Source: an uncultured Alphaproteobacteria bacterium
GTDB lineage: Bacteria; Pseudomonadota; Alphaproteobacteria; RF32; CAG-239
Direction of reading: 5' to 3'
DNA: 64,000 nucleotides
NCBI GenBank assembly: GCA_944393215.1
Contig: CALXZL010000001.1
Coordinates: 11,718 to 75,717, forward strand
Part shown: one piece after another, positions 3,439 to 64,000 of the stretch
How positions within the stretch are numbered: the first letter of the stretch is position 1
How the letters are laid out: each line of letters begins with the position of its first letter
Translations under genes and position numbers: made by a program
Notes under the pieces: model-generated
Told to the model about the DNA's origin: nothing
Databases searched by the model: none
Seen by the model: the letters and a program-made list of their open reading frames with translations, nothing else

Positions 3439-3439
3439 T

Positions 3440-13182: not shown

Positions 13183-13296
13183 ATCTTCATCCTATAATAT
13201 TAAGCTACTTTTAGTTTTATCTTAAATTTTAGTCTTTGCAAATACAAAATATCTTTTCTAAGACATTTAGTTTTAACATCAAAAAATCAACTTTCT

Positions 13297-13644: not shown

Positions 13645-13790
13645 TTTACACCTCTAATTATTATTTATTTTCACATTAGAGTGTGTAAAACGCCATGATA
13701 GTTAACTGTGTTTTTTGTACCTAAATTTAATTGACTCGCTACACAATACACATTAAAATGTGTGTAAATTTATTTTACTAACATTGAGGT

Positions 13791-14738
13791 GTGGCTATGG
13801 AACAACCTAACATATTTGATTTTGCAACTAGCGAATTATCACAAGATGCTTTTATTTGTTACTTATTAGAATTTGGAAAAGAGAAGTATAAAGACATTTT
13901 TCCAAATGAATATGCAATTGCTCATTTATTTTTCGAAAAAAGTGGACTTACTCAAACAGAAGAACTTTCAGAAATAAAACAACAATACCATGGTATAGAC
14001 GTTTTAGTCATTACATCCAATTCTCTATTAATTATTGAAGATAAAACAAATACTTCAGAACATTCAGATCAGATTATTAGGTATGTAAAAACATTAAAAA
14101 AAGATAATTTATCAAAAGGCAGAAAGATTAAAGTCTGTTATTTAAAAACAAGTAATTATGTACGTGGATATACATCTTCAGATATTACACTACTACCTCA
14201 AGAAGATTGTATTTCTATCAACAGACAAAAGTTTATGGAAATATTGAATTACAAAAAAACAAACAATTTAATATTCCAAAGTTTTTATCTTCGACTTAAG
14301 TCAATGAATGAACTTGCAAAATCTTGTGATACAAAAGACATTTTCAGTTGGAATAAAGAAAAATGGTTTGAATATCTCTTAAATCAATTTGCAGAATATC
14401 CAAAATACTATGACATTGCTTGGGTAAACAATCCCAAAGGTGGATTTTATGGTTGTTGGTTTGATTTTCTTAGTATTGGAAAAGTTGATATATATAAACA
14501 AATAGAAATTTATTTTTCAGAGAATAAAACATCAAACATAAAACTATGCAGAAAACTATTAAGCTCCAGTAGAGATGAGACCATAAAAAACAAAGAATTA
14601 ATAACAAAGTTACAAAACCAATTGCTAGACAAAGGATACACTCCTTCTAATAGAACCGGAAAGACAACAACATATGCTTATAAAAGAGCATCTTGTTTAG
14701 ATGATGTTTTACAGTTTATACAAGAAAATTTGGAATAA
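13791..14738 (+). CDS. PD-(D/E)xK nuclease family protein (PDDEXK_4-like)
   Basis: N-terminal NIFDF…SELSQDAFICYLL and HGIDVLVITSNSLLIIEDKTN…QIIRY match the pattern of the PF14281-type restriction-endonuclease-like family; transcribed divergently from the XRE gene. Confidence 0.5.
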   Translation: MAMEQPNIFDFATSELSQDAFICYLLEFGKEKYKDIFPNEYAIAHLFFEKSGLTQTEELSEIKQQYHGIDVLVITSNSLLIIEDKTNTSEHSDQIIRYVKTLKKDNLSKGRKIKVCYLKTSNYVRGYTSSDITLLPQEDCISINRQKFMEILNYKKTNNLIFQSFYLRLKSMNELAKSCDTKDIFSWNKEKWFEYLLNQFAEYPKYYDIAWVNNPKGGFYGCWFDFLSIGKVDIYKQIEIYFSENKTSNIKLCRKLLSSSRDETIKNKELITKLQNQLLDKGYTPSNRTGKTTTYAYKRASCLDDVLQFIQENLE

Positions 14739-14758
14739 CAATCAAGAAAGGACGGAAT

Positions 14759-15013
14759 ATGATATATAATTTATCTGATGCCTCTGGCAATATTCAAACT
14801 TACCCCCACATTATCCAAGGTACAGTAACTATTATCAGAGAACCCATTAAAGGAACTATGCTTTTTCCAACAGGTTCTTCGGGAATGGAATTATTAAAAT
14901 GTGATGAGAAATTTATTTATATGAGAGATCCTTATAATTCATCTAATGTAAATGTGTTTGACGAAGATGGATATAAGGTTAGAGATATTTCAATTAATGA
15001 ATTAAACTTTTAA
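14759..15013 (+). CDS. small hypothetical protein
   Basis: 84-aa ORF 20 nt downstream of 13791..14738. Confidence 0.35.
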   Translation: MIYNLSDASGNIQTYPHIIQGTVTIIREPIKGTMLFPTGSSGMELLKCDEKFIYMRDPYNSSNVNVFDEDGYKVRDISINELNF

Positions 15014-34112: not shown

Positions 34113-34435
34113 AAATAAAATATTACAAGCCAGAACGAACCCGGGTTCTCTCCATCCGGGAAGTCATAACAAAAAAAGCCGTCCTCTACAGACGGCTTTT
34201 ATGGCGTACCCGAAGGGCTTGAGGAAGAAATAATCTCCGGTGGAGATTATTTCAACGAAAGGCGCAGATTTGTTAGCTTTGAGGCAAGCAACAGCGCCGC
34301 CGACAAAGCATTACAAATCAAGTGACCGCAGCGCAGTTAGTGAGCTTGCGAACTTACAAGCCAGAACGAACCCGGGTTCGACCATCCGGGAAGCCATGAC
34401 AAAAAAAGCCGTCTTAAACAGACGGCTTTTTATGG
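34113..34435. repeat. tandemly duplicated tRNA-Arg 3'-end/terminator region carrying a ~140-bp conserved noncoding element (copy 1 of 2 in the window)
   Basis: Degenerate tRNA 3' end TGGCGTACCCGAAGGG at 34202..34217 plus a terminator, repeating the real tRNA-Arg 3' end and terminator at 34405..34448; conserved element 34225..34366 with a perfect hairpin ATAATCTCCggtGGAGATTAT (34230..34250); homologous to 58843..58976. Confidence 0.7.
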
Positions 34436-48933: not shown

Positions 48934-48956
48934 ATTTATTTTACCTTGTCTTAAAT

Positions 48957-49406
48957 TTATTGATTAAAACTTTTCTGATATAAAACTCGGGCTCTTTTCA
49001 AAATAGAGAGTTCAATAATTTGTTCTGTCTGCACGGACATTTCGCTGACCTGCCACTTTCCGTTAACTTTTTTACGAGACTGTCCTTTGACCTGAACCCC
49101 GTCCGTACGCAATTCTTTAGAAAGGATACGAACTTCGAGTTTGAATTGCTCCTTAGCATTAGAAGATTCCCGATACCAATCGGTAATAATGATACCTTTG
49201 GCAAAATTTTTTTCACTAATGGGCATAAAGCCCAATTTATCAAGCGAGGCTTGCCACAAGAACAAGTTTACATTTGCTTCTTGAACTTTTGCTTCCAATT
49301 CATCCTCTGCCCACGGATTCCATTTTTGAACATAGGAACAACCGTTAAGCAACAACATTGAAATTATCACCAAAGGAAAAAACTTTTTCATCACCAAAAA
49401 CCTCAT
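48957..49406 (-). CDS. lipoprotein
   Basis: Lipobox LLLNGC|S, 149 aa. Confidence 0.5.
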   Translation of the reverse strand: MRFLVMKKFFPLVIISMLLLNGCSYVQKWNPWAEDELEAKVQEANVNLFLWQASLDKLGFMPISEKNFAKGIIITDWYRESSNAKEQFKLEVRILSKELRTDGVQVKGQSRKKVNGKWQVSEMSVQTEQIIELSILKRARVLYQKSFNQ

Positions 49407-49519
49407 TTTTTTACAAAATTAATTAAACGTATAATAATTTTGTTGAAAACACAATAGACTTAATGCAAAACTTCCACTAGAATAACACAAAAAATTGATT
49501 AAAATATTTGGAAGCAAAA

Positions 49520-50806
49520 ATGGTTGATATACGCCGTGCAGCGGTAGAAATGTTAAAAGACGTACTGGAAAACAAAAACTTTTTCAGTGATGTAAAAATA
49601 AGGCAAAATCAGTACAACGCTCAAGATTCTGCCTTTATTAACATGTTGATATTAACAACATTTCGTCATCTGGTTTTCATCAAAAAAACATTAAAAAAAT
49701 TTGTAAAAAAGAAATTTCCGGCAACGGCAGTTAACGGACAATATGCCCTTTTCTTAGGAGTATGCGAAGTTTTATATTTAGACACCCCTGATTATGCCGT
49801 CATCAATTCTTATGTTGAAATCACCAAACAAATGGCAGATAAGTATGTTGCCGGATTCGTAAATGCCGTATTAAGAAACATATGCAAGCAAAAAGAAGAA
49901 TTAAAAAAAGAAGACAGCGGAGAATTTTTTCCTCCTGAATTTTTTCACATTCTAAATCAAGATTATGGCAAAAAAACGATTCAGAAAATTCAAAAATCCG
50001 CCATGCAAGAACCCAAGCTTGATATTTCGGTCAAAAAAGATGCCAAACATTGGGCAGAAATTTTACAAGGGCAACTTTTACCCTCAGGGACGATTCGTTT
50101 AAACAACAATGGCAAAATTTCCGACTTAGCAGGCTATCAAAACGGAGAGTGGTGGGTACAAGATTTTGCGGCAGCTTTAGCCGTTAAAGCTCTTCCTGAC
50201 ATCAAAAATAAAAAAGTTTTGGATATGTGTGCCGCCCCGGGCGGAAAAACGGCACAACTTCTTAATAAAGAAGCAACAGTAACGGCACTGGACATTTCCG
50301 AAACACGTTTAGCAAAATTAAAAGAAAATATGGATCGTTTGCATTTCAAAGCCCAGATTATCTGTGCCGATGCTTTGGAATACATCAAAAATTTTCATGA
50401 AGAAGGTTATGACGCCGTTTTGCTGGATGCCCCCTGCTCTGCCACCGGCACGATTCGCCGTCATCCGGAACTGGTACATATTAAACGGCTGAAAGATGTA
50501 GATAAACAGGTTGAACTCCAACAACAAATTTTATCTCAAACCCCAAAACTAATAAAAAAAGGCGGCATATTTATTTACTGCACTTGCTCCATTGCCCACG
50601 CCGAAGGAGAAAAACAGATAAGAGCTTTTTTAGAAAAGAACACAAATTTTAAAATCATTCCGATTACCTCGGAAGAACTTTGCGACAACGCCGAACTTTC
50701 AGAAATCATAACCCCGGAAGGCTTCATCCGCACCTTACCTTATCATCTGCAAAATTACGGTGGTACCGATTCGTTTTTTGTTGCTCGACTACAAAAGGAG
50801 TCCTAA
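49520..50806 (+). CDS. rsmB: 16S rRNA (cytosine967-C5)-methyltransferase RsmB/Sun family
   Basis: NusB-like N-terminal domain, SAM motif DMCAAPGGKT, catalytic …LLDAPCSATG…, TCS; GGAAG RBS favours the start at 49520. Confidence 0.8.
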   Translation: MVDIRRAAVEMLKDVLENKNFFSDVKIRQNQYNAQDSAFINMLILTTFRHLVFIKKTLKKFVKKKFPATAVNGQYALFLGVCEVLYLDTPDYAVINSYVEITKQMADKYVAGFVNAVLRNICKQKEELKKEDSGEFFPPEFFHILNQDYGKKTIQKIQKSAMQEPKLDISVKKDAKHWAEILQGQLLPSGTIRLNNNGKISDLAGYQNGEWWVQDFAAALAVKALPDIKNKKVLDMCAAPGGKTAQLLNKEATVTALDISETRLAKLKENMDRLHFKAQIICADALEYIKNFHEEGYDAVLLDAPCSATGTIRRHPELVHIKRLKDVDKQVELQQQILSQTPKLIKKGGIFIYCTCSIAHAEGEKQIRAFLEKNTNFKIIPITSEELCDNAELSEIITPEGFIRTLPYHLQNYGGTDSFFVARLQKES

Positions 50807-51760
50807 ATGTTTTTTAAAAAAGCCTCACATAATCATTCTTCCGAATTAGATGATCCGCAACCGGAACAAGGCATTATCTATGTTCTCGGAGATGATGAAT
50901 TGGCATTCTTTTTAACGGCAAAAATCCAAGAGAGCGGTCAAAAAAGCATCCTTTTGACACCATCAGCGCCTTCCTTCGGCAGTAAAGAAATCAAAATCAC
51001 CTTAAAGGAAGAATATAATCTGCAAAAAAAAGATTTAAGCCTCAAAGCCGGCGCACACATAATCCTTCCGCCACAAATGATAATCATCAGCTGCCGAAGC
51101 AACAGTCTGCGCGCACATATGACACTTTTACCCAGTCTTCGTTATCCCGAACTTCCCATAATAAGCTTCAACCGCCATACAGACATGGAATCAATACACT
51201 CTTTACTCGGCATCAATTTTTATCAAGCTTATTTTAAGGGATATTTAACCCAAAACGGCTCAAACCTTACGGCATGCGGGCAACTTCCGGAAATTATAAT
51301 ATCCTCCGCCACTAAAGAAGACGAAAAACTAACCTTGCTAGCGGATAAATTAAAACAAACCGGATTAAAACTCAAAGTTGAAGAAAAAGATATTGCCAAT
51401 TTCTGGCATAACAATGCCTCCCGAATAATCGGTTATTTATTTTCATCTCCCAAACAACATATTATAGAGTTCATGAATATAAAAGAAAACAAAGAAGCTT
51501 TGATAAATGCAATTCATGAGATTTGCCGTTTGGCAAAATATGAAAAAGTCAAATTATCGGAAGAAGAAATCATGAGAGAATTGATAGACACCCCTCGTAA
51601 TTTTTATTATAAAAACAGCAACCTTTCCAAAATAGAAAATGCATCGCAACTTGAAAAGTTATACAGCATGCTGAGTGAAAAAGCCCGCGCTTATAAATGT
51701 AAAATTCCGCAGCTCAACGGCATGATAAAAGAAAATTACAAATATCTGCTGAAAAAATAA
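50807..51760 (+). CDS. hypothetical protein (weak ApbA/PanE-like Rossmann resemblance)
   Basis: AAGGAG RBS; N-terminal IYVLGDDELAFFLTAKIQESG. Confidence 0.35.
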   Translation: MFFKKASHNHSSELDDPQPEQGIIYVLGDDELAFFLTAKIQESGQKSILLTPSAPSFGSKEIKITLKEEYNLQKKDLSLKAGAHIILPPQMIIISCRSNSLRAHMTLLPSLRYPELPIISFNRHTDMESIHSLLGINFYQAYFKGYLTQNGSNLTACGQLPEIIISSATKEDEKLTLLADKLKQTGLKLKVEEKDIANFWHNNASRIIGYLFSSPKQHIIEFMNIKENKEALINAIHEICRLAKYEKVKLSEEEIMRELIDTPRNFYYKNSNLSKIENASQLEKLYSMLSEKARAYKCKIPQLNGMIKENYKYLLKK

Positions 51761-51832
51761 GAGCAAAACTTGAAGAAACGACAAAAACATTTTATAAAAA
51801 ACAAAGATAAGAAGGTATAATAAGGTGTCAAC

Positions 51833-52909
51833 ATGGGGTATGAGATAATTAAAGCAATCATAATCTTGATTACGGGTTTGGCATTAAGTTTTGTCAGCTT
51901 TTATATTTATGCCGAAAAAGCCAAGACCATAATATCATCCTCATTAAAAAAAGAGCTGGCTTTTGCGCCGCTATACGTCAGCAGCATCATATTACTGACA
52001 TTGACTTATTTCATAATTCCGACAGATAATGATTTTATTCACACTTTTTCCCCTCTGGAATTGTTTGTTCCGCTCATTTTAACCGGCATATGTTATGCCG
52101 TAAGTCTTTTCCCGCAAACCGCAAAATTTTTAGATGTGGCAATAATATTGTCCGCGAGTATTGCAAGCATATTTTTACCTACAGATTTTTTGATGTTTAA
52201 CGGATATCTGCCGCTGTGGGCAGATCGTTTGGCAATCATAATGCTATGGTCAATTTTTTCCTGCTTTTATTATGTATTAAACGGCATAGACGGCATTTTA
52301 CCGATTTTCAATTCATCATACTTTGCCATGCTGATATTATTATCCGTCTTTGACGCCGCTCCGTTACTTTATGGTATGATTGGCTTAAGCCTCTTCACGG
52401 TTAACACCGGTTTCATGGTTGTGAATTGGTTTCCGGCAAAAATAAGTTTAAGCAACAATTCCTGCAAAATATTTGGTTTTATGATAGGAAGCATAATTGT
52501 TTTTTGCAGTACGGAAAATTTAGCACCGTGTTTTGCCGTTATATTGACAATATTTGTCTTAGAGTTATTACAAAGTCTGATAAAGAAATTTTCACTAAGA
52601 GAAAGATATGCCGATTTGGAAACAAACACAATATGCTATCAGGCACATATTAAAGGGCTCACTCCGGAACAAGTATGTTTCAGCATCAGCAAAATAGAAA
52701 TCATCTTTATAATAATGGGGTGTTTTCAAGCCTATTTACCAAACGCATATTCTTTACCGATTGTATCGATTATACTCGCGGCATGGTTTTTAGAGCGCCT
52801 TAAAAACTGGAATGAGCCAAAGCAAAATCTCAAAGAAATCAACCAAGAATTTATGGATGATTTACGTCAAAACATTAACGAAATTAAAAATAAAATAAAT
52901 CGAGAATAA
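51833..52909 (+). CDS. polytopic membrane protein
   Basis: 358 aa, ~9 predicted TM helices. Confidence 0.45.
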   Translation: MGYEIIKAIIILITGLALSFVSFYIYAEKAKTIISSSLKKELAFAPLYVSSIILLTLTYFIIPTDNDFIHTFSPLELFVPLILTGICYAVSLFPQTAKFLDVAIILSASIASIFLPTDFLMFNGYLPLWADRLAIIMLWSIFSCFYYVLNGIDGILPIFNSSYFAMLILLSVFDAAPLLYGMIGLSLFTVNTGFMVVNWFPAKISLSNNSCKIFGFMIGSIIVFCSTENLAPCFAVILTIFVLELLQSLIKKFSLRERYADLETNTICYQAHIKGLTPEQVCFSISKIEIIFIIMGCFQAYLPNAYSLPIVSIILAAWFLERLKNWNEPKQNLKEINQEFMDDLRQNINEIKNKINRE

Positions 52910-52911
52910 AC

Positions 52912-54282
52912 ATGCAACTGTTAACAAAAATCAAGCAACTGTTTTTCTCATCCGGTCAGAAGGAAGAACCGGAATTTATTTTTGATATAAAGGATTTAAT
53001 AAATTTCAAAGTCGTTGTTGTTGAATTTTCCGATAACGTAGAAAGTCGCAGCGGAGAAATAATTGCTAAAAAGCTAAAAACGCAAGAAGGCTTAGAAGTT
53101 TCATATTTTGATGATCCTTTTCCCAAAAGCTTTCTGAATTTAGACAGTCGAACCTTATTTGATATGATAGATCAAGGTCTAAGCATAATAGATAAAACAA
53201 AAGCCGATGTCTTAATCTGGGGCTATCGGGAAGGAGACAAAATACGCATTAATTTTCAAAATGCCAAACAATATGAAAAAGAGGACAACGCGTTTATATC
53301 TTTAATGGATTGTTTTTATATTCCGGCGGATATCAATACATCGGAAGAAAACTTTCCGACGGCATTAAGCAATCTAATCTACGGAGGCGTTATCAGTGCC
53401 ATCAATCCGCACAATAAAGAGACACAGATTCAAAAGAAATTTCTTTTAAAGAAAATCATAAACAGCTTATCCAAAGATAATACGGCAAAATCATTATCAA
53501 TAGAATATATGCCCTATATTATGAATCTGCTAGGCATCATATATTTAAGCTATGCCTATGACCGCGGCGATGGAAAAGACTACAAGATTGTCAAAAATTT
53601 ATTTGATACGGCATTAAATCATCAAGATTTAATCAAGAACCCAATTCATCTGGGTTGCATATATAATCATCTCGGGCAACTTTACGATGCCTCAAGCGAA
53701 TATTCCCCCAAACGCCCGATAAATCATTTGCGCAACGCCATCAGTTATTTTCGCCAAGCCCAAAAATATCTAAGCAAATACAATTACCCCTATGATTATG
53801 GCTATATATCTTATCGTTTATCACAGCTTTTTTATACTTATTGGAAACAAAAGGAAGATATTCAAGCCTTAAGAGATGCCGTTTTTCAACTTCGAGAAGC
53901 CGAAAAAATATATACTTACGCTCTTTTTCCCGAATTTTGGGCAAACATACAAGGAGAATTGGCGCATATGCTTTCTCTACTCGGTAGTTTCAGCAACAGT
54001 GAAGAAATTTCGGAATTAGCCATTGCCTGCTATAAAAACCGCCAAAAAGTTATAACTGAAAAAAGAGATCCTTTAGAATGGGCACATATCCAGGCACATA
54101 TAGGAGAAATTTACTATCGTTTAGGCAAAAACAGCGAAGATAAATCTTTACTTGAAGAAGCCTTAGAATATTTTCACGATTCGTTATACATATATGAAAA
54201 CATGAACCTTGGAGATGAAGCCAAAAAAATCTCAACCGAAATCGCCAAAGCCAGCCATAGTCTGAATTTCTTGCAAGGATAA
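52912..54282 (+). CDS. hypothetical protein (TPR-like helical repeats)
   Basis: 456 aa; C-terminal half has repeated YxxALxxxxxA-type helical pairs. Confidence 0.4.
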   Translation: MQLLTKIKQLFFSSGQKEEPEFIFDIKDLINFKVVVVEFSDNVESRSGEIIAKKLKTQEGLEVSYFDDPFPKSFLNLDSRTLFDMIDQGLSIIDKTKADVLIWGYREGDKIRINFQNAKQYEKEDNAFISLMDCFYIPADINTSEENFPTALSNLIYGGVISAINPHNKETQIQKKFLLKKIINSLSKDNTAKSLSIEYMPYIMNLLGIIYLSYAYDRGDGKDYKIVKNLFDTALNHQDLIKNPIHLGCIYNHLGQLYDASSEYSPKRPINHLRNAISYFRQAQKYLSKYNYPYDYGYISYRLSQLFYTYWKQKEDIQALRDAVFQLREAEKIYTYALFPEFWANIQGELAHMLSLLGSFSNSEEISELAIACYKNRQKVITEKRDPLEWAHIQAHIGEIYYRLGKNSEDKSLLEEALEYFHDSLYIYENMNLGDEAKKISTEIAKASHSLNFLQG

Positions 54283-54286
54283 AATT

Positions 54287-54745
54287 ATGGATTCTCAGCT
54301 GATTATGGAGAGCAAATTGGGAAGAATATTGCTGGAAGCCAAAGAAAATAAGCTGACTGGATGTCATTTTACCAAAGAAAAAGCAACTTCTAAACAAGCA
54401 GATTTATTTTTATTCAAAGTAAAAGAAGAGCTTGAAGAATATTTTTCGGGACAAAGAAAAGAATTTGATATTCCGCTGGCACCTCAGGGAACCGATTTTC
54501 AAAAAAAAGTATGGAAGGCTTTACAAAACATAAATTACGGAACAACGGCAAGTTATAAAGAAATAGCGCAAAAAATCAATAATCCCAAAGCAGTCCGTGC
54601 TGTTGGTATGGCAAACAACCAAAACCCCATAGCCATAATCATTCCTTGCCACAGAGTCATCGGAAGTAACGGTAAATTAGTCGGCTATGCCGGAGGTCTG
54701 GAATTAAAACAAAAACTTTTAGAGCTGGAAAAAAATAATCAATAA
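54287..54745 (+). CDS. ogt: methylated-DNA--protein-cysteine methyltransferase
   Basis: Active-site IPCHRVIGSNG and DNA-binding helix TASYKEIAQKI. Confidence 0.85.
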   Translation: MDSQLIMESKLGRILLEAKENKLTGCHFTKEKATSKQADLFLFKVKEELEEYFSGQRKEFDIPLAPQGTDFQKKVWKALQNINYGTTASYKEIAQKINNPKAVRAVGMANNQNPIAIIIPCHRVIGSNGKLVGYAGGLELKQKLLELEKNNQ

Positions 54746-54755
54746 GAGAAAGACA

Positions 54756-55098
54756 ATGAGACAATTTTATCCAATAATTCTTTTAACAATATCAAACATA
54801 TTCATGACATTTGCCTGGTACGGACATTTAAAATTCAAATCGACCGCTCTGTGGATAGTCATATTGGCAAGCTGGGGAATTGCTTTTTTTGAATATATAT
54901 TTCAAGTCCCCGCCAATCGCATAGGGCACGAATTTTTTTAGCGCGGCGCAATTAAAAATCTTGCAGGAAGCCATCACCATCACAATCTTTTGCATATTTT
55001 CCATACTGTATTTAAAAGAAGATTTAAAATGGAATTACCTGGTTGGCTTTGCCTTAATTTTATTGGCAGTATTTTTTGTATTTAAGAAATGGGATTAA
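54756..55098 (+). pseudogene. DMT-superfamily DUF486 membrane protein interrupted by a +1 frameshift at a T7 homopolymer
   Basis: N-terminal part MRQFYPIILLTISNIFMTFAWYGHLKF…QVPANRIGHEFF stops at a TAG immediately after TTTTTTT (54933..54939); in the +1 frame the sequence continues as SAAQLKILQEAITITIFCIFSILYLKEDLKWNYLVGFALILLAVFFVFKKWD, the expected second half of a ~114-aa DUF486 protein. Confidence 0.55.
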
Positions 55099-55102
55099 AA
55101 AG

Positions 55103-56056
55103 ATGCTAAAAAACAGAAGTCTGTCCGAAAAATTTTTTAAGACATTAAACGAAGAAAAATATAAAGAAATCAAGAATATTGTTAACAATGATGATGATCT
55201 GATAATGTGCCTTCGCGGAAATTATGTCACCATATATTATAAAAGCATGCGCATATTAGAAATATCTCAACAAGGAAAATTTAACATTGATAAACATTAT
55301 GGCATTTCCGTCCCTTGCGATAATACCGATTGGGTAGAATATTTTAAAAATGCCAAATATGCGATAGATATATACGGCAAAGAAAAAAACATCAGCAAAT
55401 TTGAAAAGGAAGTCCAACAAGCCATAGTAAAAGAAAATAATATCGGAACCATATGCAATGAAACCGATTATTTTATAATAGACATAGAATACACCCAACC
55501 CCATTTTAACGGAAGATTTGATGCCTTAGCCGTACACTGGCCTAAGAACAAACGCAAAAACGGCAACAACCTGCAATTAGCCTTTATTGAAATAAAAGCC
55601 GGAAGCAATGCGGTTCGCGGCAATTCCGGTGTTTCAAAACATTACAATTCGGTCATAGAATTTTTAAAAAATTTAAATCAAGGAGATAATAAAGAAAAAT
55701 TTATTCAAGACTTGGAACAAATGATACAACAGCAACGAGATTTAGGTTTGTGGAATATTCCGCATAATCAAAACAAAATAACGCTTTCTCGAACAATCAA
55801 ACCGCAATTAATTTTCGTTCTTGCAGATTATAATCCCAAATCAAAATCTCTTGTGGAAGAATTTGAAGAAATTTCCGCAACAAATAATAATGACCTCCCG
55901 TTTGAATTAACATTTGCCACGTCATCTTTTGTCGGATACGGATTATATGATGATTGTATGTTAACCATAGATGAAGTCAAAGAAAAACTATCAGGAAATA
56001 AAAATGAAGGCATGCATCAGAAGAGGCTCGAATCAAATCGGAGGATCAGCGGTTGA
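55103..56056 (+). CDS. hypothetical protein (possible PD-(D/E)xK-like motif)
   Basis: 318 aa; FDALAVHW…LAFIEIKAG resembles a D…E.K core; overlaps the next gene by ~50 nt. Confidence 0.4.
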   Translation: MLKNRSLSEKFFKTLNEEKYKEIKNIVNNDDDLIMCLRGNYVTIYYKSMRILEISQQGKFNIDKHYGISVPCDNTDWVEYFKNAKYAIDIYGKEKNISKFEKEVQQAIVKENNIGTICNETDYFIIDIEYTQPHFNGRFDALAVHWPKNKRKNGNNLQLAFIEIKAGSNAVRGNSGVSKHYNSVIEFLKNLNQGDNKEKFIQDLEQMIQQQRDLGLWNIPHNQNKITLSRTIKPQLIFVLADYNPKSKSLVEEFEEISATNNNDLPFELTFATSSFVGYGLYDDCMLTIDEVKEKLSGNKNEGMHQKRLESNRRISG

Positions 56057-57200
56057 GATTATAGCAGATAATCAACAAAGATTGATTATAGATATAGGCT
56101 TACCTCTTGATGCTGAGGAAAATACGGCAGATTTATTACCTCAAATAAAAGGATTAAAAGAGAAATCCTCGGATTTATTGGGAATTTTGATTTCACATGC
56201 GCATCAAGATCATTACGCCTTAGGATTACATATAGATAAACATATCCCTGTTTATATGGGAAGAATCTCAGCCAAAATACTGGAAGTTTCCGCTCAACAT
56301 AATCTTCCGCAAGCATTTTGTTTTAAAAATATAATGACATTTAACAATCAACAAAGTTTCCAAGTCGGAGCTTTCAAAATCACCCCTTATTTAACTGACC
56401 ACTCTGCATATGATTCTTATTCTTTTTTGATAGAAGCGGACGGCAAACGATTATTCTACAGCGGAGACTTTCGAGCCCACGGCAGAAAATCCAAACTATT
56501 TGAAAGTTTAATAAAAAATCCGCCGCAAGATATTGATATTCTTCTGCTGGAAGGTTCATGTTTAGGACGAAAACAATCAGGAAAATATGAAACAGAAACA
56601 GCACTTGAAGCAAAATTTTTAAATACCTTAAAGTGTAGCAAAGGTCTTTGCTTGGTTCAAACCTCATCTCAAAATATAGATAGAATTGTCACAATCTATC
56701 GCGCCTGCAAAAAAAGCAATAGAAGCTTGGTAATATCCGGTTATACGGGACATATTTTACAATGTTTAGGAAATTCGAAAATACCCAATTTTACCTGGTC
56801 AGATGTCAAAAAATTATCCGTAAAGGCAGCCAAAAAACACGAAATCACCATAAAGACAATAGAAAAAGAACCGGAAAAATATACCATATTATTATGCGGA
56901 TATATTTTCAAAATGCTAAAAGAAAGTCCAATCTTAAATCCTAAAACAACGTTCATCTATTCCATGTGGGAAGGTTATAAAGAAGAGTATCAAGAAAAGT
57001 TAAACTTAATGAAAGATAAAGGGATAAAGATGATAGATATTCACACCTCGGGACATGCCGATATTCCGAGTTTGAAAAGATTTGCCTCGGCACTAAATCC
57101 TAAACATTTAGTTCCGATACATACTTTCTATCCGCAAGAATTTAAAGAATTATTTGATAATGTTGTCATTTACAAAGACAATCAAATTTTTGCAATTTAA
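56004..57200 (+). CDS. MBL-fold metallo-hydrolase (beta-CASP / RNase J-like)
   Basis: HxHxDH motif ISHAHQDHY, later …SGDFR…, C-terminal HTSGHAD. Confidence 0.7.
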   Translation: MKACIRRGSNQIGGSAVEIIADNQQRLIIDIGLPLDAEENTADLLPQIKGLKEKSSDLLGILISHAHQDHYALGLHIDKHIPVYMGRISAKILEVSAQHNLPQAFCFKNIMTFNNQQSFQVGAFKITPYLTDHSAYDSYSFLIEADGKRLFYSGDFRAHGRKSKLFESLIKNPPQDIDILLLEGSCLGRKQSGKYETETALEAKFLNTLKCSKGLCLVQTSSQNIDRIVTIYRACKKSNRSLVISGYTGHILQCLGNSKIPNFTWSDVKKLSVKAAKKHEITIKTIEKEPEKYTILLCGYIFKMLKESPILNPKTTFIYSMWEGYKEEYQEKLNLMKDKGIKMIDIHTSGHADIPSLKRFASALNPKHLVPIHTFYPQEFKELFDNVVIYKDNQIFAI

Positions 57201-57250
57201 ACCCTGGGCACTCAAGGATACCTAGGCTTCAAATCCTACTCTTCTCAACA

Positions 57251-57279
57251 AAAAAAGCCCGCTTTGCAGGCTTTTCTTA
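57251..57279. terminator. weak bidirectional hairpin between the MBL gene and tRNA-Ser
   Basis: AAAAAAGCCcgctttgcaGGCTTTTCTT. Confidence 0.35.
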
Positions 57280-57371
57280 TGGCGGAGAGATAGGGATTCG
57301 AACCCTAGGTACCCGTTACCGAGCACAATTGATTTCGAGTCAACCGCATTCGACCACTCTGCCATCTCTCC
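57280..57371 (-). tRNA. tRNA-Ser (anticodon CGA)
   Basis: GGAGAGATGGCAGAGTGGTCGAATGCGGTTGACTCGAAATCAA… long variable arm …CTCTCCGCCA; 92 nt. Confidence 0.85.
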
Positions 57372-57444
57372 GTTATTTCTGATACTAATAAATTTTATTA
57401 TCCTTTTTGGCAAGAACTATTTTAAACTTCCGCAATAAATCTGA

Positions 57445-58026
57445 CTATTCGCGACCATCATCTTCCAAACCGCATCGACGCAATCTCTCAATTTGAGCAG
57501 CTTTTTTCTTTTCATCAATACCCTCCTCTTCACTATGAACAATATTTTGACTGACTGGCTGCCAATTTTTTTCCTCTCGCAACATTTGCTTTGCTTCCGA
57601 AAATGTTTGTTTAAACGGATGCATTTTTTCTCGTTGAGAATCTCGACCTTCTTCAATATGCTCATCAGATATGCCTCTGACCACTTCAGATACATGCAGG
57701 GGCATAATCAAAATCCCCACCACATGATTAATCAGTTGCTCTTCAAAATTAAAGCGCCGATTCAAACGAATACGCACTTCTTCTTTGTTATCATATCCAA
57801 AAATTTTTGACGGAAGCAATGCAACCAAATCATCACAACGCTCAAAGACTAAAATTCCGCGGACCAAACACAATACAGATTCCCCCGTATCATGACATAC
57901 AAATTCAATAACATCGTTAAGCTTAATTTTCTGATGCTCGGCATCAAACAACCTAACCTCAACACGTTTTGTTCCGTTAACAATTTTATCAAAAGAAAAA
58001 CGCATCAGACACATTGTGTGTTTCAT
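57445..58026 (-). CDS. ASCH-domain protein with acidic C-terminal tail
   Basis: N-terminal MRFSFDKIVNGTKRVEVRLFD…IKLNDVIEF resembles the ASCH/PUA-like fold; 193 aa. Confidence 0.45.
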   Translation of the reverse strand: MKHTMCLMRFSFDKIVNGTKRVEVRLFDAEHQKIKLNDVIEFVCHDTGESVLCLVRGILVFERCDDLVALLPSKIFGYDNKEEVRIRLNRRFNFEEQLINHVVGILIMPLHVSEVVRGISDEHIEEGRDSQREKMHPFKQTFSEAKQMLREEKNWQPVSQNIVHSEEEGIDEKKKAAQIERLRRCGLEDDGRE

Positions 58027-58150
58027 ATTTATCGCTCCTAAAATCTATAAACTAAGAATAAACCGGAAAAAAACAACTTTCAAACAATTAGTGAGTCGAC
58101 AATTAAAAAATATAATGTTATATGTAAATACATATAAGAAAGAGAAATAT

Positions 58151-58672
58151 ATGAAAAAATTTTGGGCAATATTTGTTTTAGGAAGCATCCTATTCACATC
58201 AACACCGGGACGAGCAGACCTTGTACTCGGTGCTGATGTATATAAAGCATTTATTGATACCAGCCAAGAATTTGATAGTTACTCCGAAGACAATTATGAT
58301 ATGATTGCCGCTGTTTTGGGGTTTGACTTTAAAGGAGTAGGCATTGAAGGTTTTTATCAAATGTCTCAAGATATGACAAACAACAATGATCGAGATTCAA
58401 AGCTAACCTCCTATGGTGTTGATTTTGTTTTAAGACTTCCGACATCAGACTATTTAGATTTTGTCAGCTCTCTTGGATACATAAAATACAAACTTGAAAC
58501 AGATTTAAGAGATTTAGAAAGTGACGGTCTAAGAATTGGATTTGGTTTTCAGTTTAATTTCAACAAATATATAGCCTTGCGCACTATGTACCACTATTCA
58601 GCCCTAACCAAAGAAATTGATCACCTAAAAAGCATCAATGAAATAAGCGCCGGAATAAGAATCAAATTTTAG
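58151..58672 (+). CDS. outer-membrane beta-barrel protein (OmpW/opacity-like)
   Basis: Signal peptide MKKFWAIFVLGSILFTSTPGRA|DL, alternating amphipathic beta-strands, C-terminal …GIRIKF; the ORF-track start at 58016 is a spurious extension. Confidence 0.6.
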   Translation: MKKFWAIFVLGSILFTSTPGRADLVLGADVYKAFIDTSQEFDSYSEDNYDMIAAVLGFDFKGVGIEGFYQMSQDMTNNNDRDSKLTSYGVDFVLRLPTSDYLDFVSSLGYIKYKLETDLRDLESDGLRIGFGFQFNFNKYIALRTMYHYSALTKEIDHLKSINEISAGIRIKF

Positions 58673-58681
58673 TCAAAAAAA

Positions 58682-59075
58682 GCAAATAATCCTTACAAAT
58701 CAAGTGACCGCAGCGCGGTTAGTGAGCTAAAGCGAACTTACAAGCCAGACAGGGATTTCAATCCCTTCGCCCGGATACAAAAAAACCTCCGCAACGGGAG
58801 GTTAAGAATTGGAGCGGGCTGAAGGAGAAAATAATCTCCGGTGGAGATTATTTTAACGACAGGCGAAGATTTGTTAGCTTTGAGGCAAGCGACAGCGCCG
58901 ACGATAAAGCCTTACAAATCAAGTGACCGCAGCGCGGTTAGTGAGCTAAAGCGAACTTACAAGCCAGACAGGGATTTCAATCCCTTCACCCGGATACAAA
59001 AAAACCTCCGCAACGGGAGGTTAAGAATTGGAGCGGGTGAAGGGATTCGAACCCTCGACATCAACCTTGGCAAAA
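58682..59075. repeat. tandem repeat region ending in an orphan tRNA-Gly(GCC) 3' fragment; contains copy 2 of the ~140-bp conserved element
   Basis: Partial element 58682..58739; degenerate tRNA 3' end TGGAGCGGGCTGAAGG 58809..58824; full element 58843..58976 with hairpin ATAATCTCCggtGGAGATTAT 58848..58868; tRNA-Gly(GCC) 3' fragment TGGAGCGGGTGAAGGGATTCGAACCCTCGACATCAACCTTGGCAA 59029..59073 (T-arm, acceptor 3' strand and anticodon loop only). Confidence 0.7.
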
Positions 59076-59296
59076 TTTTTAGATTCTCCCTATCCCCTGA
59101 AAATCTGCCATACAGAAGACTCATTAGGTATAAGACCTTGCTATTTTATACACAGAGAAGACATCATCACATCAAACACATACTTCTCTCTAAGATGTCA
59201 AAATCAATGATTTCAAACATCAAAAATGATGAATAAAAATATTGACATTTCCAATTATACCTTAGTTATTTTGTGTAAACACACACTAAATTAGGT

Positions 59297-59375
59297 CATA
59301 AAATGTGAATAGAACCACTTTTTTCCCTCATAAAATGTGATTGGAAACAAAAATTTCCTTTACAAAATGTGATTG
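59297..59375 (+). promoter_or_regulatory. three direct repeats (cA(t/c)AAAATGTGAtT) at exact 32-bp spacing upstream of the AAA+ ATPase gene
   Basis: AAAATGTGA cores begin at 59300, 59332 and 59364; the last ends 39 nt before the ATG at 59414. Confidence 0.5.
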
Positions 59376-59413
59376 CAAGCATATGTTAATATCAAATATG
59401 AAAGGATGACACA

Positions 59414-60724
59414 ATGAAAAGACTTGCTTTTGAACAATTATTAGAATGGAAGAACAAACAAAACAGAAAACCTTTAATTGTCCAAGGAGCAAGACAGGTT
59501 GGCAAAACTTGGTTAATGAAAGAATTTGGAAGACAACATTATTCCAAAGTTGCATACATCAGCTTTGATGCCAACAAAACAGCTAATGATATTTTTGAAG
59601 CTGATTATAATATTTCAAATATCATACAAGCATTAAATATTTTATCAGGAGTTGATATTACTCCTCAGGATACCTTAATTATATTTGATGAAATCCAAGA
59701 GTCAGAAAGAGCTTTGAATTCCTTAAAATTCTTCAAAGAAAATGCTCCTGAATATCACATTATGGCAGCAGGAAGTTTATTAGGTGTGGCTGTTAAACAA
59801 AAAAATATGTCTTTTCCTGTTGGGCAAGTGGAATTTCTAAATCTTTATCCTTTAAGTTTTATAGAATTTCTATCTGCTATTGGAGAAGATAAACTTTGTA
59901 ACATTATATGTGAAAGGAACATACTACTCAGTAAAGCATTTAAAGATACATTCATATCTTTATTAAAATTATATATGTTTATTGGAGGAATGCCTGAAGT
60001 TGTATATAGTTATACTCAAAACAAAAATCTTGATATTGTCAGAGAAATACAAAATCAAATACTTTTAGGCTATCAAAATGATTTTTCCAAATACACTGAA
60101 AGTTTTAATGTTGCCAGAATCAATGCTGTTTGGCATTCTCTACCCTCCCAATTAGCAAAAGAAAATAAAAAATTTGCTTATAATCAAATAGCCCCAAGTG
60201 CAAGAGCAAGGGAATATGAAATGGCAATTGAATGGCTAATTCTTTGTGGTTTGGTATATAAAATAAATAGAATTTCTAAACCTGATGTGCCTTTGTCTGC
60301 TTATGCAGATTCTTCAGCATTTAAACTTTATATGATAGATACTGGATTATTAGGAGCTCTATCTTCTTTAGATGCCAAAGCAATTATTGAGGGTAATAAA
60401 ATTTTTGAAGAGTTCAAGGGGGCTTTAACAGAACAATTTGTATTACAAGAACTTATTTTGCAAAAAAACTTACCCATTGCTTATTGGAGCTCAGAAAGTA
60501 GTCAGAATGAAATAGATTTTGTAATTCAATATAATAATCAAATCATTCCTATTGAAGTAAAATCATCTATAAATTTAAAAGCAAAAAGTTTAAGTGCATA
60601 CAGAGAAAAATATAAACAAGAAATAGCTATTAGGACATCCTTAGCTGACTTTGAAATTAATCAAGGTCTGCATAATATCCCCTTATATTTGGTAGATAAT
60701 CTTCTAAATTTTATTGAAGAGTAA
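59414..60724 (+). CDS. AAA+ ATPase, DUF4143 family
   Basis: Walker A GARQVGKT, Walker B IIFDEIQ, 436 aa with the family-typical C-terminal DUF4143 region. Confidence 0.65.
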   Translation: MKRLAFEQLLEWKNKQNRKPLIVQGARQVGKTWLMKEFGRQHYSKVAYISFDANKTANDIFEADYNISNIIQALNILSGVDITPQDTLIIFDEIQESERALNSLKFFKENAPEYHIMAAGSLLGVAVKQKNMSFPVGQVEFLNLYPLSFIEFLSAIGEDKLCNIICERNILLSKAFKDTFISLLKLYMFIGGMPEVVYSYTQNKNLDIVREIQNQILLGYQNDFSKYTESFNVARINAVWHSLPSQLAKENKKFAYNQIAPSARAREYEMAIEWLILCGLVYKINRISKPDVPLSAYADSSAFKLYMIDTGLLGALSSLDAKAIIEGNKIFEEFKGALTEQFVLQELILQKNLPIAYWSSESSQNEIDFVIQYNNQIIPIEVKSSINLKAKSLSAYREKYKQEIAIRTSLADFEINQGLHNIPLYLVDNLLNFIEE

Positions 60725-60962
60725 AACTATATATTTTTAGATAAGGTGGAAAGGTATAAAAACCAACTCCACCTCACCTAATATACGGCTTCTATACATC
60801 CATAAAAAATGTATCATACAAAAAATCTAAAGGGAGCCCTCTTTTTTTATTTTCTTGAAAAAAATTTATTAAAACTAGGCTTTTTGATAAATATATGTGA
60901 ATGAGTTTCAATAAGTATATAATAATCCATTAATATCTCCAACATTGATAGGATGTTGGAGT

Positions 60963-61514
60963 TTAATTTTTCAGATATGAATACAAAGTAGGTCTGGATA
61001 TGTGATACTTTCTTGCCAGTTCAGAGAGGGAAACTTTTTGAGATTTTGCCAATTCTTTCAACTCAGCAATCTCTTGGGGGGACAATTTATGTTTTCCACC
61101 CTTATATTTGCCTTTCATTTTAGCCAAAGCAATTCCTTCTCTTTGTCTTTCAAGAATTAAACTTCTCTCAAGCTCAGCAACTGCCCCAAGCATTGTCATC
61201 ATCAATTTTTGATATGGGTCATTTTTACCTGCTTCAAAAGTCAGATTTTCCTTATGGAATTTTATAGTGACTCCTTGGGATGTGATTTCCTCTACCAAAT
61301 TCAGTAAATCTCTAGTATTCCTAGCTAATCTATCCATAGAATGCACATTGATGATGTCTCCAGCTCTGATAATAGAGAGCAATAATTCCAGTTGAGGCCT
61401 ATTTCTGTCCTTACCTGACAATTTATCCTCAAACTCCCTATCACATTTTATGTTGAGTAATTGTCTTTCTGTGCTTTGGTCTATTGTTGAAACTCTCTTG
61501 TAATTGAAAATCAT
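60963..61514 (-). CDS. serine recombinase (resolvase/invertase family)
   Basis: N-terminal catalytic YKRVSTIDQSTERQL with Ser nucleophile, …DRLARN…, C-terminal HTH LSELARKYHISRPTLYSYL; 183 aa. Confidence 0.85.
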   Translation of the reverse strand: MIFNYKRVSTIDQSTERQLLNIKCDREFEDKLSGKDRNRPQLELLLSIIRAGDIINVHSMDRLARNTRDLLNLVEEITSQGVTIKFHKENLTFEAGKNDPYQKLMMTMLGAVAELERSLILERQREGIALAKMKGKYKGGKHKLSPQEIAELKELAKSQKVSLSELARKYHISRPTLYSYLKN

Positions 61515-61523
61515 ATTGCCACC

Positions 61524-61620
61524 TGTAAAGTTAAAATCTTAAACATAACTTTACAATAAATAAAAACTGTAAAATTGTCAAGTATTTTGATTTCAACTTT
61601 ACAGTTTTAAAATTGTCAAA
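61524..61620. promoter_or_regulatory. inverted-repeat sites upstream of the serine recombinase (candidate res / crossover sites)
   Basis: TGTAAAGTT-N14-AACTTTACA (61524..61555); TGTAAAaTTG-N16-CAAcTTTACA (61568..61603); direct repeat AAAATTGTCAA at 61571 and 61609. Confidence 0.5.
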
Positions 61621-61685
61621 TCAGCCTCTACTCTAAATTTACAGCAAATAAAGCTACAAAAGGTATATTTTGTTGCATTTTTGCA

Positions 61686-62084
61686 TCAATATTCATCAGC
61701 AAGCATCACAGTCATCACTCTTCTAGTCTTGATGCTATCATATGGTGCTGGTGAGTGATATTTCAATTCAGTATCATAATAGTCAATTTTCCATATGATT
61801 TTGTAATTTTTGAAATTAATAATGCCAAAATCTTTCTCCCCATAGGGGTTGTTGTCATCATTAAAATCATCATAAAAGCTGATAGTTCTCATTATTTGGA
61901 ATAAGTCATAATTAGAAAACATTGACATTCCTGAAGAATACACAATTTCTCCATTTCTATGGAAAATTCTCAGCATATCATTGAGATTTTGCATTCTTTT
62001 TAATTGTTCTTGATTATACATAAAAAAATCTCCCTTACTAGTAAGAGAGATTTTAACCAGAAATTTTAGCTCTGTCAGGTCCAT
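61686..62084 (-). CDS. hypothetical protein
   Basis: 132-aa ORF between the recombinase and hsdR. Confidence 0.35.
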   Translation of the reverse strand: MDLTELKFLVKISLTSKGDFFMYNQEQLKRMQNLNDMLRIFHRNGEIVYSSGMSMFSNYDLFQIMRTISFYDDFNDDNNPYGEKDFGIINFKNYKIIWKIDYYDTELKYHSPAPYDSIKTRRVMTVMLADEY

Positions 62085-62095
62085 AAATAGATTAT

Positions 62096-64000
62096 TTAAA
62101 TGTAATCACTGACAATATCCCTAAATCTATTAAAGAAATTAATTATTTTTTCTAATACTGTTGTCCTCTTAATTCCTCTATCATTATTTTTGGTAAATAA
62201 AGAAACTGGGGGTAAAATTTTATTAATTGCTGTACCTGTTGTGGGTACAAAACCATCTCTAAAGGCATTTTCAATAAATTTATAGGTTTCCTCTTTATTT
62301 AATTTTTCCTCTTCTATAATTTTATCCAATTCAACTAATTTCTGTTGTCCCACATAGGTTTTCCAATCTTTATCAACATCTGAGCTTGGAGTTAGAGATG
62401 CTATAAAATTCATAATCAAATCTTTTTTACTTCTCAATTCCATACTAGAATCAACAGATTTCTCAATATTCACAATGATTTCTTTATCTTTTTGCTCACC
62501 AGATTGATATTTTTTAATAAGCATCAAAATATAGTCAATATTGATTTCAACTTGTTTTATTAATTCCATTTCAAAAACAATATCATCATTAATATTATCT
62601 TTGTCCTTTTTAGTTTTGTTTCTCCATTCTTCATATAATGAAATATACATACTATGGTAATCCTGAACATCTCTATCAGTTAAGATGCCTTTCCCCATAA
62701 ATTCATCAAATGAAGATAAAATATTTTTAACTCTTAAAATTCCACCATATAGTTTGATAAAGTCTTTTTGGGCTTGCTCACTCACTATCACTTCACCAAT
62801 AGGGTATTGTTGTTGCAATTCTTCTATTAATTGAGTGTATGGTCTAACAAACTTTCCTTTTTCATCATAATAACCATCACTATAATATTCCTTAAATGTT
62901 TTCAGTAAAACAATTCCACCTGCTTCTTTATTTCCAAACAGGGCTATGCTTTTATTGGTGGCATCTTCCAAATTTCTAAAGCAAACAATATTTCCATATG
63001 TTTTTACAGAATTAAGGATTCTGTTTGTTCTTGAATATGCCTGCAACAAACCTTGTGATTGGAGATTTTTATCCACCCATAATGTATTCAATGTTGTTGC
63101 ATCAAACCCTGTCAGGAACATATTAACCACAATAAGCAGGTCAATTTCCCTATTTTTCATCCTTAATGATACATCTTTATAATAATTTTGGAACTTATCA
63201 CTTGATGTATCATAGGTTGTTCCAAACATTTTATTATAGTCAGCAATAGCTTTTTCCAAAAACTCTCTGCTACTTGCATCTAAACTGTCAGTATTTTCAG
63301 GATTTTCATCATCAAAGCAATCAACACTGTTATCATCCCCATTGGGAGCATAGCTATAGATAGTAGCAATTTTTAATTTCTTTTCTGGATGTTCCTTCAT
63401 TTGTTTTTGGAATTCTGTATAATATAGCTTTGCCATATCAATACTAGCAACACAGAATATAGAATTAAAACCTGTTAATCTAACTTTTGCCTTAATTTCA
63501 TCCAAGGCTTTTTGATTTTTAGCAGATGCCATTTCTTTAATATTCTGGAGTTTGCTAAATTCATAAGACCTATCATTTCTTTTTGTTTTTTGATTAAAGT
63601 GCTCCAAAATATATTCAACCACTCTGGAAATTCTCTCTGGAGCTTGCAGAGCTTTTTCTCTATCTATATTCCAAACTTTGCTGTCAGCAATATTTTCTTG
63701 CTCCTTCATTGTACTGATATAATCAATTCTAAAAGGAAGAACATTTTTGTCAGCAATTGCATCCACAATAGTGTAAGTATGTAATTTTTCTCCAAAGGCT
63801 TGCTCTGTTGTTTTCAGCTTTGGATTTCCTCCCTGATAAGCATTTTCTGCAAATATGGGAGTTCCTGTAAACCCAAATAAATGATATTTCTTAAATGCTT
63901 TGGTAATATAGATATGTTGCTCACCAAATTGGCTTCTGTGGCATTCATCAAAAATCAATACCAAATGTTGCTTATATATAGGATGTTCTTTATTTTTTTT
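62096..64000 (-). CDS. hsdR: type I restriction enzyme R subunit, C-terminal part (N-terminus lies beyond the window edge)
   Basis: Helicase motif II DECHR, motif III GFTGTP, motif VI QAYSRTNR; the ORF is open to the window end. Confidence 0.8.
   Translation of the reverse strand, partial: KKNKEHPIYKQHLVLIFDECHRSQFGEQHIYITKAFKKYHLFGFTGTPIFAENAYQGGNPKLKTTEQAFGEKLHTYTIVDAIADKNVLPFRIDYISTMKEQENIADSKVWNIDREKALQAPERISRVVEYILEHFNQKTKRNDRSYEFSKLQNIKEMASAKNQKALDEIKAKVRLTGFNSIFCVASIDMAKLYYTEFQKQMKEHPEKKLKIATIYSYAPNGDDNSVDCFDDENPENTDSLDASSREFLEKAIADYNKMFGTTYDTSSDKFQNYYKDVSLRMKNREIDLLIVVNMFLTGFDATTLNTLWVDKNLQSQGLLQAYSRTNRILNSVKTYGNIVCFRNLEDATNKSIALFGNKEAGGIVLLKTFKEYYSDGYYDEKGKFVRPYTQLIEELQQQYPIGEVIVSEQAQKDFIKLYGGILRVKNILSSFDEFMGKGILTDRDVQDYHSMYISLYEEWRNKTKKDKDNINDDIVFEMELIKQVEINIDYILMLIKKYQSGEQKDKEIIVNIEKSVDSSMELRSKKDLIMNFIASLTPSSDVDKDWKTYVGQQKLVELDKIIEEEKLNKEETYKFIENAFRDGFVPTTGTAINKILPPVSLFTKNNDRGIKRTTVLEKIINFFNRFRDIVSDYI

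Follow-up and report, generated by a model that had tools for sequence, protein, structure and literature searches.

Why does a chromosome carry half of a tRNA gene? The question is raised by a 64,000-nt stretch of DNA from an uncultured alphaproteobacterium of the CAG-239 lineage (GenBank assembly GCA_944393215.1, contig CALXZL010000001.1, positions 11,718 to 75,717), here called the window, in which only the 3' part of a tRNA-Gly(GCC) gene is found next to a low-GC region. An earlier sequence-only reading, made from the letters and a list of open reading frames (ORFs), took the fragment for an attachment (att) site remnant of an integrated or decayed element. We consider it highly probable that the fragment is the attR of an integrative island that is intact, measures about 14.3 kb and is inserted in tRNA-Gly(GCC) at the anticodon loop. 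This is drawn from an observed insertion polymorphism, the gene content, four att sites and a circular junction seen in a relative. Islands that insert in tRNA genes are a well-known kind; the part that is still strange is a family of small, structured and previously undescribed repeats, named E here, that lies on the chromosomal side of the fragment.

The tRNA-Gly(GCC) fragment and its island

Read on the minus strand from 59073 to 59029, the fragment is TTGCCAAGGTTGATGTCGAGGGTTCGAATCCCTTCACCCGCTCCA, exactly the 3' 45 nt of tRNA-Gly(GCC). The sequence-only reading had found its extent and its coordinates, and only the strand had to be corrected, to minus. The anticodon loop (GCC), the 3' strand of the anticodon stem, the variable loop, the T arm, the acceptor 3' strand, the discriminator U and the CCA are all present. 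Related strains have an intact tRNA-Gly(GCC) at this position, and its 3' part matches the 45 nt with 100% identity, so that a chance resemblance is excluded. ARAGORN, which calls five other tRNAs in the window, calls none at the fragment, and Rfam finds no tRNA there, its sole match being a 10-bit tmRNA T-arm; the 5' half is thus truly absent. An intron-bearing or missed tRNA was rejected on these negatives and because the bases preceding the fragment (…CTAAAAATT) are unable to pair with GGTTG as a 5' anticodon stem. In some assemblies gene finders call ORFs of 131 aa (58841-59236) and 60 aa (59028-59210) across the E repeat and the fragment; these are almost certainly spurious.

Comparison contigs were collected by an exact-protein look-up with the outer-membrane protein (OMP) gene just left of the fragment, which returned ten same-species contigs, 96-99.6% identical over ~10 kb; all comparison sequences used here come from metagenome assemblies. 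Seven contigs (L007-L011, L014 and L016) have an intact tRNA-Gly(GCC) by ARAGORN and no island, and in these empty sites the order is the OMP gene, a 360-630 bp spacer with E repeats and the tRNA-Gly(GCC), a glycosyltransferase (GT2), a TM2 protein and GroEL/ES. Up to …CCTTGGCAA (59073) the window aligns collinearly with the empty-site contigs, and from 59074 onward it is unrelated to them. This homology break coincides with the 5' edge of the anticodon loop and sets the island boundary between 59073 and 59074. To its right the GC content is 0.30 against 0.38 in the core, and the insertion is polymorphic among strains that are 99% identical in core, which bears out the earlier suggestion that this side is accessory. 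A complete tRNA-Gly at this spot had been named beforehand as the observation that should count against an att-site remnant; it occurs only in strains lacking the island, the opposite of a refutation.

The far end of the island was approached through homologues. Two contigs, L003 and L004, share the window's sequence without difference from ~59500 to 64000 and then run further (L003 at 100% over 59534-64000). In the homologous islands on L017, L018 and L019 the far end is a full tRNA-Gly(GCC) followed by a tyrosine integrase. L017 and L018, both from NCBI GCA_949299085.1, have the order GroES, GroEL, tRNA-Gly(GCC), tyrosine integrase, Rep-like gene, DUF6626, ankyrin protein (Ank), methylase, S subunit, resolvase, KAP NTPase, DUF4143. 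The integrase, seen in homologues only, adjoins attL or attP in L019 and L038; it is very divergent, the 412-aa L019 copy scoring 37.6 bits on Pfam Phage_integrase (cut-off 27.1) and NCBIfam giving only weak Xer-type matches. The 3' half of the L017/L018 tRNA (…GTCGTGGGTTCAAATCCCATTGCCCGCTCCA) differs from the window's native remnant at seven positions, as expected if the element supplies the 3' half of the tRNA.

A second kind of evidence comes from L038, a contig of 13,742 nt whose exact 30-nt terminal overlap is what a circle leaves when assembled with k=31. Here TTGCCAAGGTTGATGTCGTGGGTTCAAATCCCATTGCCCGCTCCA connects the DUF4143 arm with the integrase arm, the former running straight into TTGCCAAGG…CCCGCTCCA and then into the latter; this junction is the predicted attP. 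Aligning attB, attP, attL and attR leaves TTGCCAAGGTTGATGTCG as the sole common block, starting at the first base of the anticodon loop, with the element-type 3' half at attL and the native type at attR. Since the shared block is limited to TTGCCAAGGTTGATGTCG, the crossover is placed in or just after the anticodon loop, and it probably falls within the 7-nt loop itself.

Taken together, the element would have recombined with the tRNA gene at the anticodon loop and displaced the native 3' part, the presumed catalyst being its own tyrosine integrase. It would carry its own copy of the tRNA 3' half, and an intact hybrid tRNA-Gly would therefore be expected at attL, which should lie beyond the window's edge, ~14.3 kb rightward of 59074; the window's own attL presumably resembles that of its relatives. 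The size is an estimate from contig arithmetic, position p of L003 being window position 71515-p with 1876 further bases in the contig; the distance from the Rep-like gene to the tRNA in L038 is 1901 nt. The right arm of the island holds candidate arm-type repeats, namely AGAGAAGACATCATCA (59154-59169), TTTGTGTAAA (59270-59279) and three of AAAATGTGA (59300-59372), which may be binding sites of the integrase, and it also holds the promoter region of the DUF4143 gene. The "iteron-like repeats" listed in the sequence-only reading are two separate things, a 131-nt repeat outside the island and the three AAAATGTGA-containing repeats inside the arm.

Several points weigh against an intact island. 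The window's own attL, integrase and hybrid tRNA are outside the visible sequence, and the intact tRNA gene (tDNA) of the far end is within neither the window nor L003, which ends 75 nt upstream of the Rep-like gene; it is contig arithmetic alone that suggests that the integrase and tRNA half follow that gene. No excisionase was recognized, the 69-aa ORF adjoining the integrase gene being without family match. The L038 circle could reflect tandem copies and not an episome. Finally, L005 carries at 2537-3712 an island end 99.8% identical to window 59026-61561, tRNA fragment included, beside a different flank of ~50% GC with a terminator, a TM2 protein and GroEL. It represents either a second host species or a chimeric low-coverage contig joined through the shared 45 nt, and a chimera would count with the points just listed.

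With one island end alone visible in the window and no excisionase recognized, the fragment might be the relic of an old, immobile insertion, a decayed island fixed in the lineage. Against this, the insertion is polymorphic among near-identical strains, the island is 100% identical in several samples, the backbone ORFs are all intact and the assembly of a close relative gave a circle whose attP is clean, and we regard a relic as very unlikely. The word "decayed" in the sequence-only reading is likewise dropped, as homologues have the integrase, an attL with full tRNA and the circular attP junction, and the element looks intact. A misjoining of two contigs at shared tRNA sequence, in assembly or binning, would also split a tRNA, and such an artefact is in keeping with wholly metagenomic data, with the alternative flank of L005, and with contigs that often break here (L015 ends at 59073+8, L001 starts at 59056). 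Breaks are, however, expected where strains with and without the island coexist, the set of attR, attL, attP and attB is internally consistent, and the same junction was assembled independently in the window and in L012, a 25-kb contig 100% identical to the window over 48151-59537 with the junction included. An artefact is extremely improbable in our judgment, and the intact island stays the preferred explanation of the fragment.

Table 1. Features of the locus, by position in the window unless a contig is named.
Feature	Position	Strand	Evidence or remark
Distal truncated E copy (positions 1-62), abuts OMP gene end	58688..58749	-	In all strains
R2, tRNA-Gly 3'-end remnant (CCTTCAGCCCGCTCCA), closes full E unit	58810..58825	-	Analogous remnants at Arg, Lys, His loci
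E-core full copy, 147 nt, chromosomal	58822..58968	-	173 bits; covariation
V, imperfect inverted copy of tRNA-Gly T arm and acceptor 3' strand	58969..58997	-	Second copy 58750-58778
T1, intrinsic terminator of tRNA-Gly gene, native chromosome	58998..59022	-	Second copy 58779-58803
tRNA-Gly(GCC) 3' fragment, displaced native part, attR core	59029..59073	-	Sequence; four-site alignment
Island right arm (P' arm of attP)	59074..59413	.	Same motifs on both attP arms in L038; arm ~95% conserved in L038
AAA_14/DUF4143 ATPase	59414-60724	+	Pfam 4e-41, 2.5e-26
Small serine recombinase, resolvase/invertase type, 183 aa	60963-61514	-	Resolvase 8.5e-35, C-terminal helix-turn-helix
Res-like region upstream of resolvase gene	61515..61685	.	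Conserved in window, L017, L038
DUF3768 protein, 132 aa	61686-62084	-	7.6e-28
HsdR, C-terminal 634 codons	62096 to beyond 64000	-	EcoR124_C, T1R_D3-like, SWI2_SNF2
F copies	L026 5730-5950; L028 5290-5535 (-); L032; L036

Island genes and the resolvase

The AAA+ ATPase, the resolvase/invertase and the type I restriction R subunit running off the window, which the sequence-only reading had named from their translations, were confirmed by family matches (Table 1). The DUF4143 ATPase matches the PADLOC candidate defense family PDC-S01 (1.4e-179) and is conserved at the attR end of all island variants, L017-L020 and L038 among them, and the DUF3768 gene is conserved adjoining the resolvase in L003, L038 and L023. 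The R subunit is not truncated, as had been supposed; the window edge alone cuts hsdR, which is full length in L003 at 1040 aa. Following it beyond the window also produced the partners that had been proposed for search, hsdM and one hsdS without inverted cassettes, the order upstream of hsdR in L003 being PrrC, HsdS, a 216-aa ORF that sits between hsdM and hsdS, HsdM, Ank, DUF6626 and the Rep-like gene. The product of the PrrC gene (L003 5218-6294, ~window 65221-66297 by extrapolation), flanked by hsdS and hsdR, is a predicted PrrC-type anticodon nuclease (PADLOC PrrC 8.4e-97, Pfam AAA_13). The Rep-like protein has 224 aa and an HUH-like motif with a weak match to PF23343, a replication protein family; its own family counts 26 clusters only, all at least 64% identical, and allows no transfer of function beyond that weak match. 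A viral origin was rejected, the Rep-like protein and the E motif being without IMG/VR matches.

Across variants a conserved backbone emerges, made of the integrase, the small ORF, the HUH-like Rep, DUF6626, the ankyrin protein, DUF3768, the resolvase with a res-like site and the DUF4143 ATPase, and exchangeable slots for defense cargo lie between these genes. Here the slots hold a complete type I restriction-modification (R-M) system (HsdM, HsdS, HsdR) with PrrC; relatives have a methylase/S pair, a KAP NTPase or different R-M genes in their place. In the literature we did not find the combination of HUH-like Rep, resolvase with res-like site, DUF6626, Ank and DUF4143 described.

The resolvase is a backbone gene, kept in variants with quite different cargo. 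It is in every variant, whether a type I system is present or not, and at 62% identity it is also found in another island family. Upstream of it lie conserved TGTAAA/TTTACA palindromes, in the window the palindrome TGTAAAGTTA-N12-TAACTTTACA (61524-61555) and further CTGTAAA/TTTACAG dyads. By its layout this region resembles a res site and may function as one, so that the resolvase would serve in multimer resolution, probably acting on multimers of a circular and possibly replicating form of the island. The sequence-only reading had linked the recombinase to phase-variable restriction specificity, by inversion of hsdS segments. The recombinase gene does lie ~600 bp from hsdR, and the variant on L023 has two opposed hsdS genes beside a small tyrosine recombinase and a resolvase. 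The island itself, however, has one hsdS (388 aa, two target recognition domains), no second hsdS or silent cassette was found in L003, L004 or the window (tblastn, E<1; best further match 5.8), 12 kb hold no long or meaningful inverted repeats, and the resolvase lies beyond hsdR and DUF3768, away from hsdS, and is retained where any type I system is missing. Phase variation of this type I system by hsdS inversion is not supported, and we rate it as highly unlikely; multimer resolution stays the presumed role of the resolvase.

The L023 cargo (3500-12455) deserves a remark of its own. It combines two hsdS genes in opposite orientation, a 193-aa tyrosine recombinase, a 207-aa resolvase, hsdM and hsdR, and is a plausible hsdS shufflon, different from the cargo of the window's island. 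A different island of 6.2 kb was also seen at the same tRNA-Gly(GCC) in L034 (335-6840), with its crossover at the 3' end of the gene. It carries a 607-aa DUF6538-type integrase, a Rep-like protein, a Mrr-Ank protein and the resolvase that is 62% identical to the window's, with TGTGTAGTAG arm repeats at both ends and an att core of 16 nt, CCCTTCACCCGCTCCA.

The E repeats behind tRNA genes

The 131-nt direct repeat (58688-58818 and 58907-59037, 98% identical, period 219) is chromosomal and outside the island, and occurs in one or two copies in island-free strains. It is part of 219-nt units built around the ~147-nt element E, the order in the direction of the tRNA being tRNA, T1, V, E-core, R2, T1, V, truncated E (1-62) and OMP gene end. 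The two V copies are 86% and 81% complementary to 59034-59054 and pair with the tRNA 3' remnant in minimum free energy folds. In L007-L016 the spacer between OMP gene and tRNA-Gly holds two unrelated terminator cassettes (A: AACCTCCCGTTGCGGAGGTT; B: GACCTCAACACTTTTCGTGGAGGTC), found among strains in all combinations (A, B, AA, AB, BB), which indicates recombination or the serial integration of different unit alleles. An E-core 90% identical to this one also stands behind tRNA-Arg(CCG) at 34222-34365 (repeat region 34122-34432), flanked by Arg-specific versions of T1, V and R, and that locus has a 229-nt presence/absence polymorphism. E was rejected as a part of the island, because nhmmer and a covariance model found no E-like sequence in the five islands of L003, L017, L019, L034 and L038.

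Two other repeat or accessory stretches were seen in passing. Downstream of the Gly E unit in L035 (3620-3900) there is a ~105-nt unit (…GCGGCGCGTTTAATCGCAAGACTTAGCTGTTTGGGTTCGGTTGCCCTGACGTCGCGATGC…) in at least three tandem repeats, with a single related copy in L031 and L034. In the window itself, 10000-15000 has a GC content of 0.26-0.29 against ~0.38, starting beside tRNA-Trp (10081-10156, minus strand), and may be another tRNA-associated accessory region.

In a scan of species-representative genomes E was found in metagenome-assembled genomes of uncultured, gut-type Alphaproteobacteria only. In every case it follows a tRNA gene (Arg-CCG, Lys-CUU, His-GUG or Gly-GCC) at a distance of 100-250 nt and in the orientation of that gene, frequently as two tandem units; a metagenome scan gave three more divergent loci, all fitting this pattern, with the tRNA visible at two of the three. 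The number of units varies between near-identical strains. Four parts make up a unit of ~220 nt: a copy of the local tRNA 3' end, which runs from the 3' strand of the T-stem to CCA, then a terminator, an imperfect inverted copy of the local T arm and acceptor, and the 147-nt core. The core has a conserved, covarying fold of four domains: in an alignment of 15 copies, itself fitted to the model, pairing holds in 97.5% of cells and double changes occur at 23 of 43 pairs, compared with 7.6±1.8 for shuffles and no more than 6 for slid controls. The divergent copy E2 scores 68 bits by the covariance model and 24 bits by a sequence-only profile. G:U pairs occur on the tRNA-sense strand only, and this bias points to single-stranded RNA or DNA of tRNA-sense polarity.

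What E is was sought among known classes. Rfam 15 gave only noise at E<=1 over E and over the F core described below (three scans), and no protein gene travels with E. A group I intron was set aside, since E is too small, has no Rfam match and is not in a functional tRNA; a pseudo-tRNA was as well, with no drawable cloverleaf and no covariance-model match. No convincing sigma-70-like site was found that would give E its own promoter. For V, a primer-binding site was rejected because the His and Lys units no longer complement the tRNA 3' terminus, and a mimic of the acceptor minihelix because the acceptor part pairs in some units only and the T-stem part alone is retained; the duplex energies of V:R do not clearly surpass those of shuffles (fraction at least as good 0.01 to 0.71). 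E was also compared by eye with integron attC sites, in which an imperfect hairpin has R''(RYYYAAC)...R'(GTTRRRY) core sites at its base; the TCGAACC-NN-GGTTCGT hairpin of E misfits both this consensus and the L-box layout.

Behind tRNA-Arg(CCG) the frame of E can be occupied by a second, unrelated GC-rich core of ~75 nt, F (GGAGGAGAGGCAGACG…GGAGCCC), in the order terminator, inverted T arm, GGTTCGA, core and tRNA 3' end. In L036 the copy E2 (5472-5623, minus strand) is inserted inversely inside F, which is uninterrupted in L026, L028 and L032, and this arrangement is direct evidence for movement of the E core itself. The att core of the L034 island covers the stretch from T-stem to CCA, which is also what bounds E units at the Arg, Lys and His loci; the window's R2 retains this stretch with a one-base insertion. 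E units may be gene-less elements, serially integrated at tRNA 3' ends and mobilized in trans, a tentative reading that we hold to be quite possible but somewhat short of probable. They could instead be a family of tRNA-linked small RNA genes that duplication has spread, or a folded single-strand element. In its widest form, E would be a new class of gene-less, structure-dependent mobile element acting as folded single-stranded DNA or RNA, or else a new family of tRNA-tailed small RNAs, which is a more doubtful proposition. An element of the former sort would target tRNA 3' ends through its target-derived inverted repeat, perhaps somewhat like the folded att sites of CTX-type integrative mobile elements exploiting Xer (IMEX) or like integron cassettes.

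Known systems and what the locus means

As a tRNA-gene island the element has close parallels. In the Islander collection a regenerated tDNA and a displaced fragment mark the ends of islands, and anticodon-centered attP sites account for 2083 of 3919 islands, about half (PMC4383910). Our island agrees with the class A islands there in the displaced 3' tDNA fragment in direct orientation, the block of identity from the anticodon loop and the empty sites in close strains, and, to judge by its homologues, in the tRNA restored by the island and the integrase beside the intact tDNA. It differs from them in its very divergent integrase, its combination of backbone genes and its host, an uncultured alphaproteobacterium. 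The Tycheposons of Prochlorococcus, for which circular intermediates have been detected (bioRxiv 10.1101/2020.12.28.424599), are by their description also small tyrosine-recombinase elements at tRNA genes with flanking partial tRNAs, replication genes, exchangeable cargo, tandem or serial integrations and degenerate remnants; host and gene families differ, and the cargo of our island is defense systems.

For the E units alone, the nearest likeness is to cis-mobilizable elements (CIMEs), which are reviewed together with tandem accretion at the att sites of integrative and conjugative elements in PMC5704250. E units too are short and gene-less, have direct repeats of an att-like tRNA 3' end as their limits and form tandem arrays beside a tRNA, in L034 beside an island. 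They are distinct in measuring only ~220 nt and in having a covarying, structured core and an inverted T-arm copy.

The type I cargo recalls the prr locus of E. coli, where the type Ic R-M system EcoprrI is associated with the PrrC anticodon nuclease and prrC lies between hsdS and hsdR. The gene order is the same in our island, with two differences, the extra 216-aa ORF between hsdM and hsdS and the location of the locus on an integrative element. Williams in 2002 reportedly set out a scheme of sublocations for integration sites in tRNA genes. At the present locus one tRNA-Gly gene has two sublocations used by two island families that share the resolvase and the Rep-like gene, which illustrates how integration modules are exchanged.

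What the locus offers is therefore of two kinds. E, if real, would be the more important of the two, a structured repeat family associated with tRNA 3' ends that may have a mobility or RNA function. The island adds a clean case of a small integrative element, fully delimited once its homologues are taken in, whose defense cargo is modular and whose host belongs to an uncultured alphaproteobacterial lineage; the cargo ranges over a type I R-M system with PrrC, the candidate family PDC-S01 (DUF4143), the KAP NTPase and others. That attB, attP, attL and attR could all be recovered from metagenomes is unsurprising for an element of this kind, and is useful for island catalogs and for the prospecting of integrases and their att sites.

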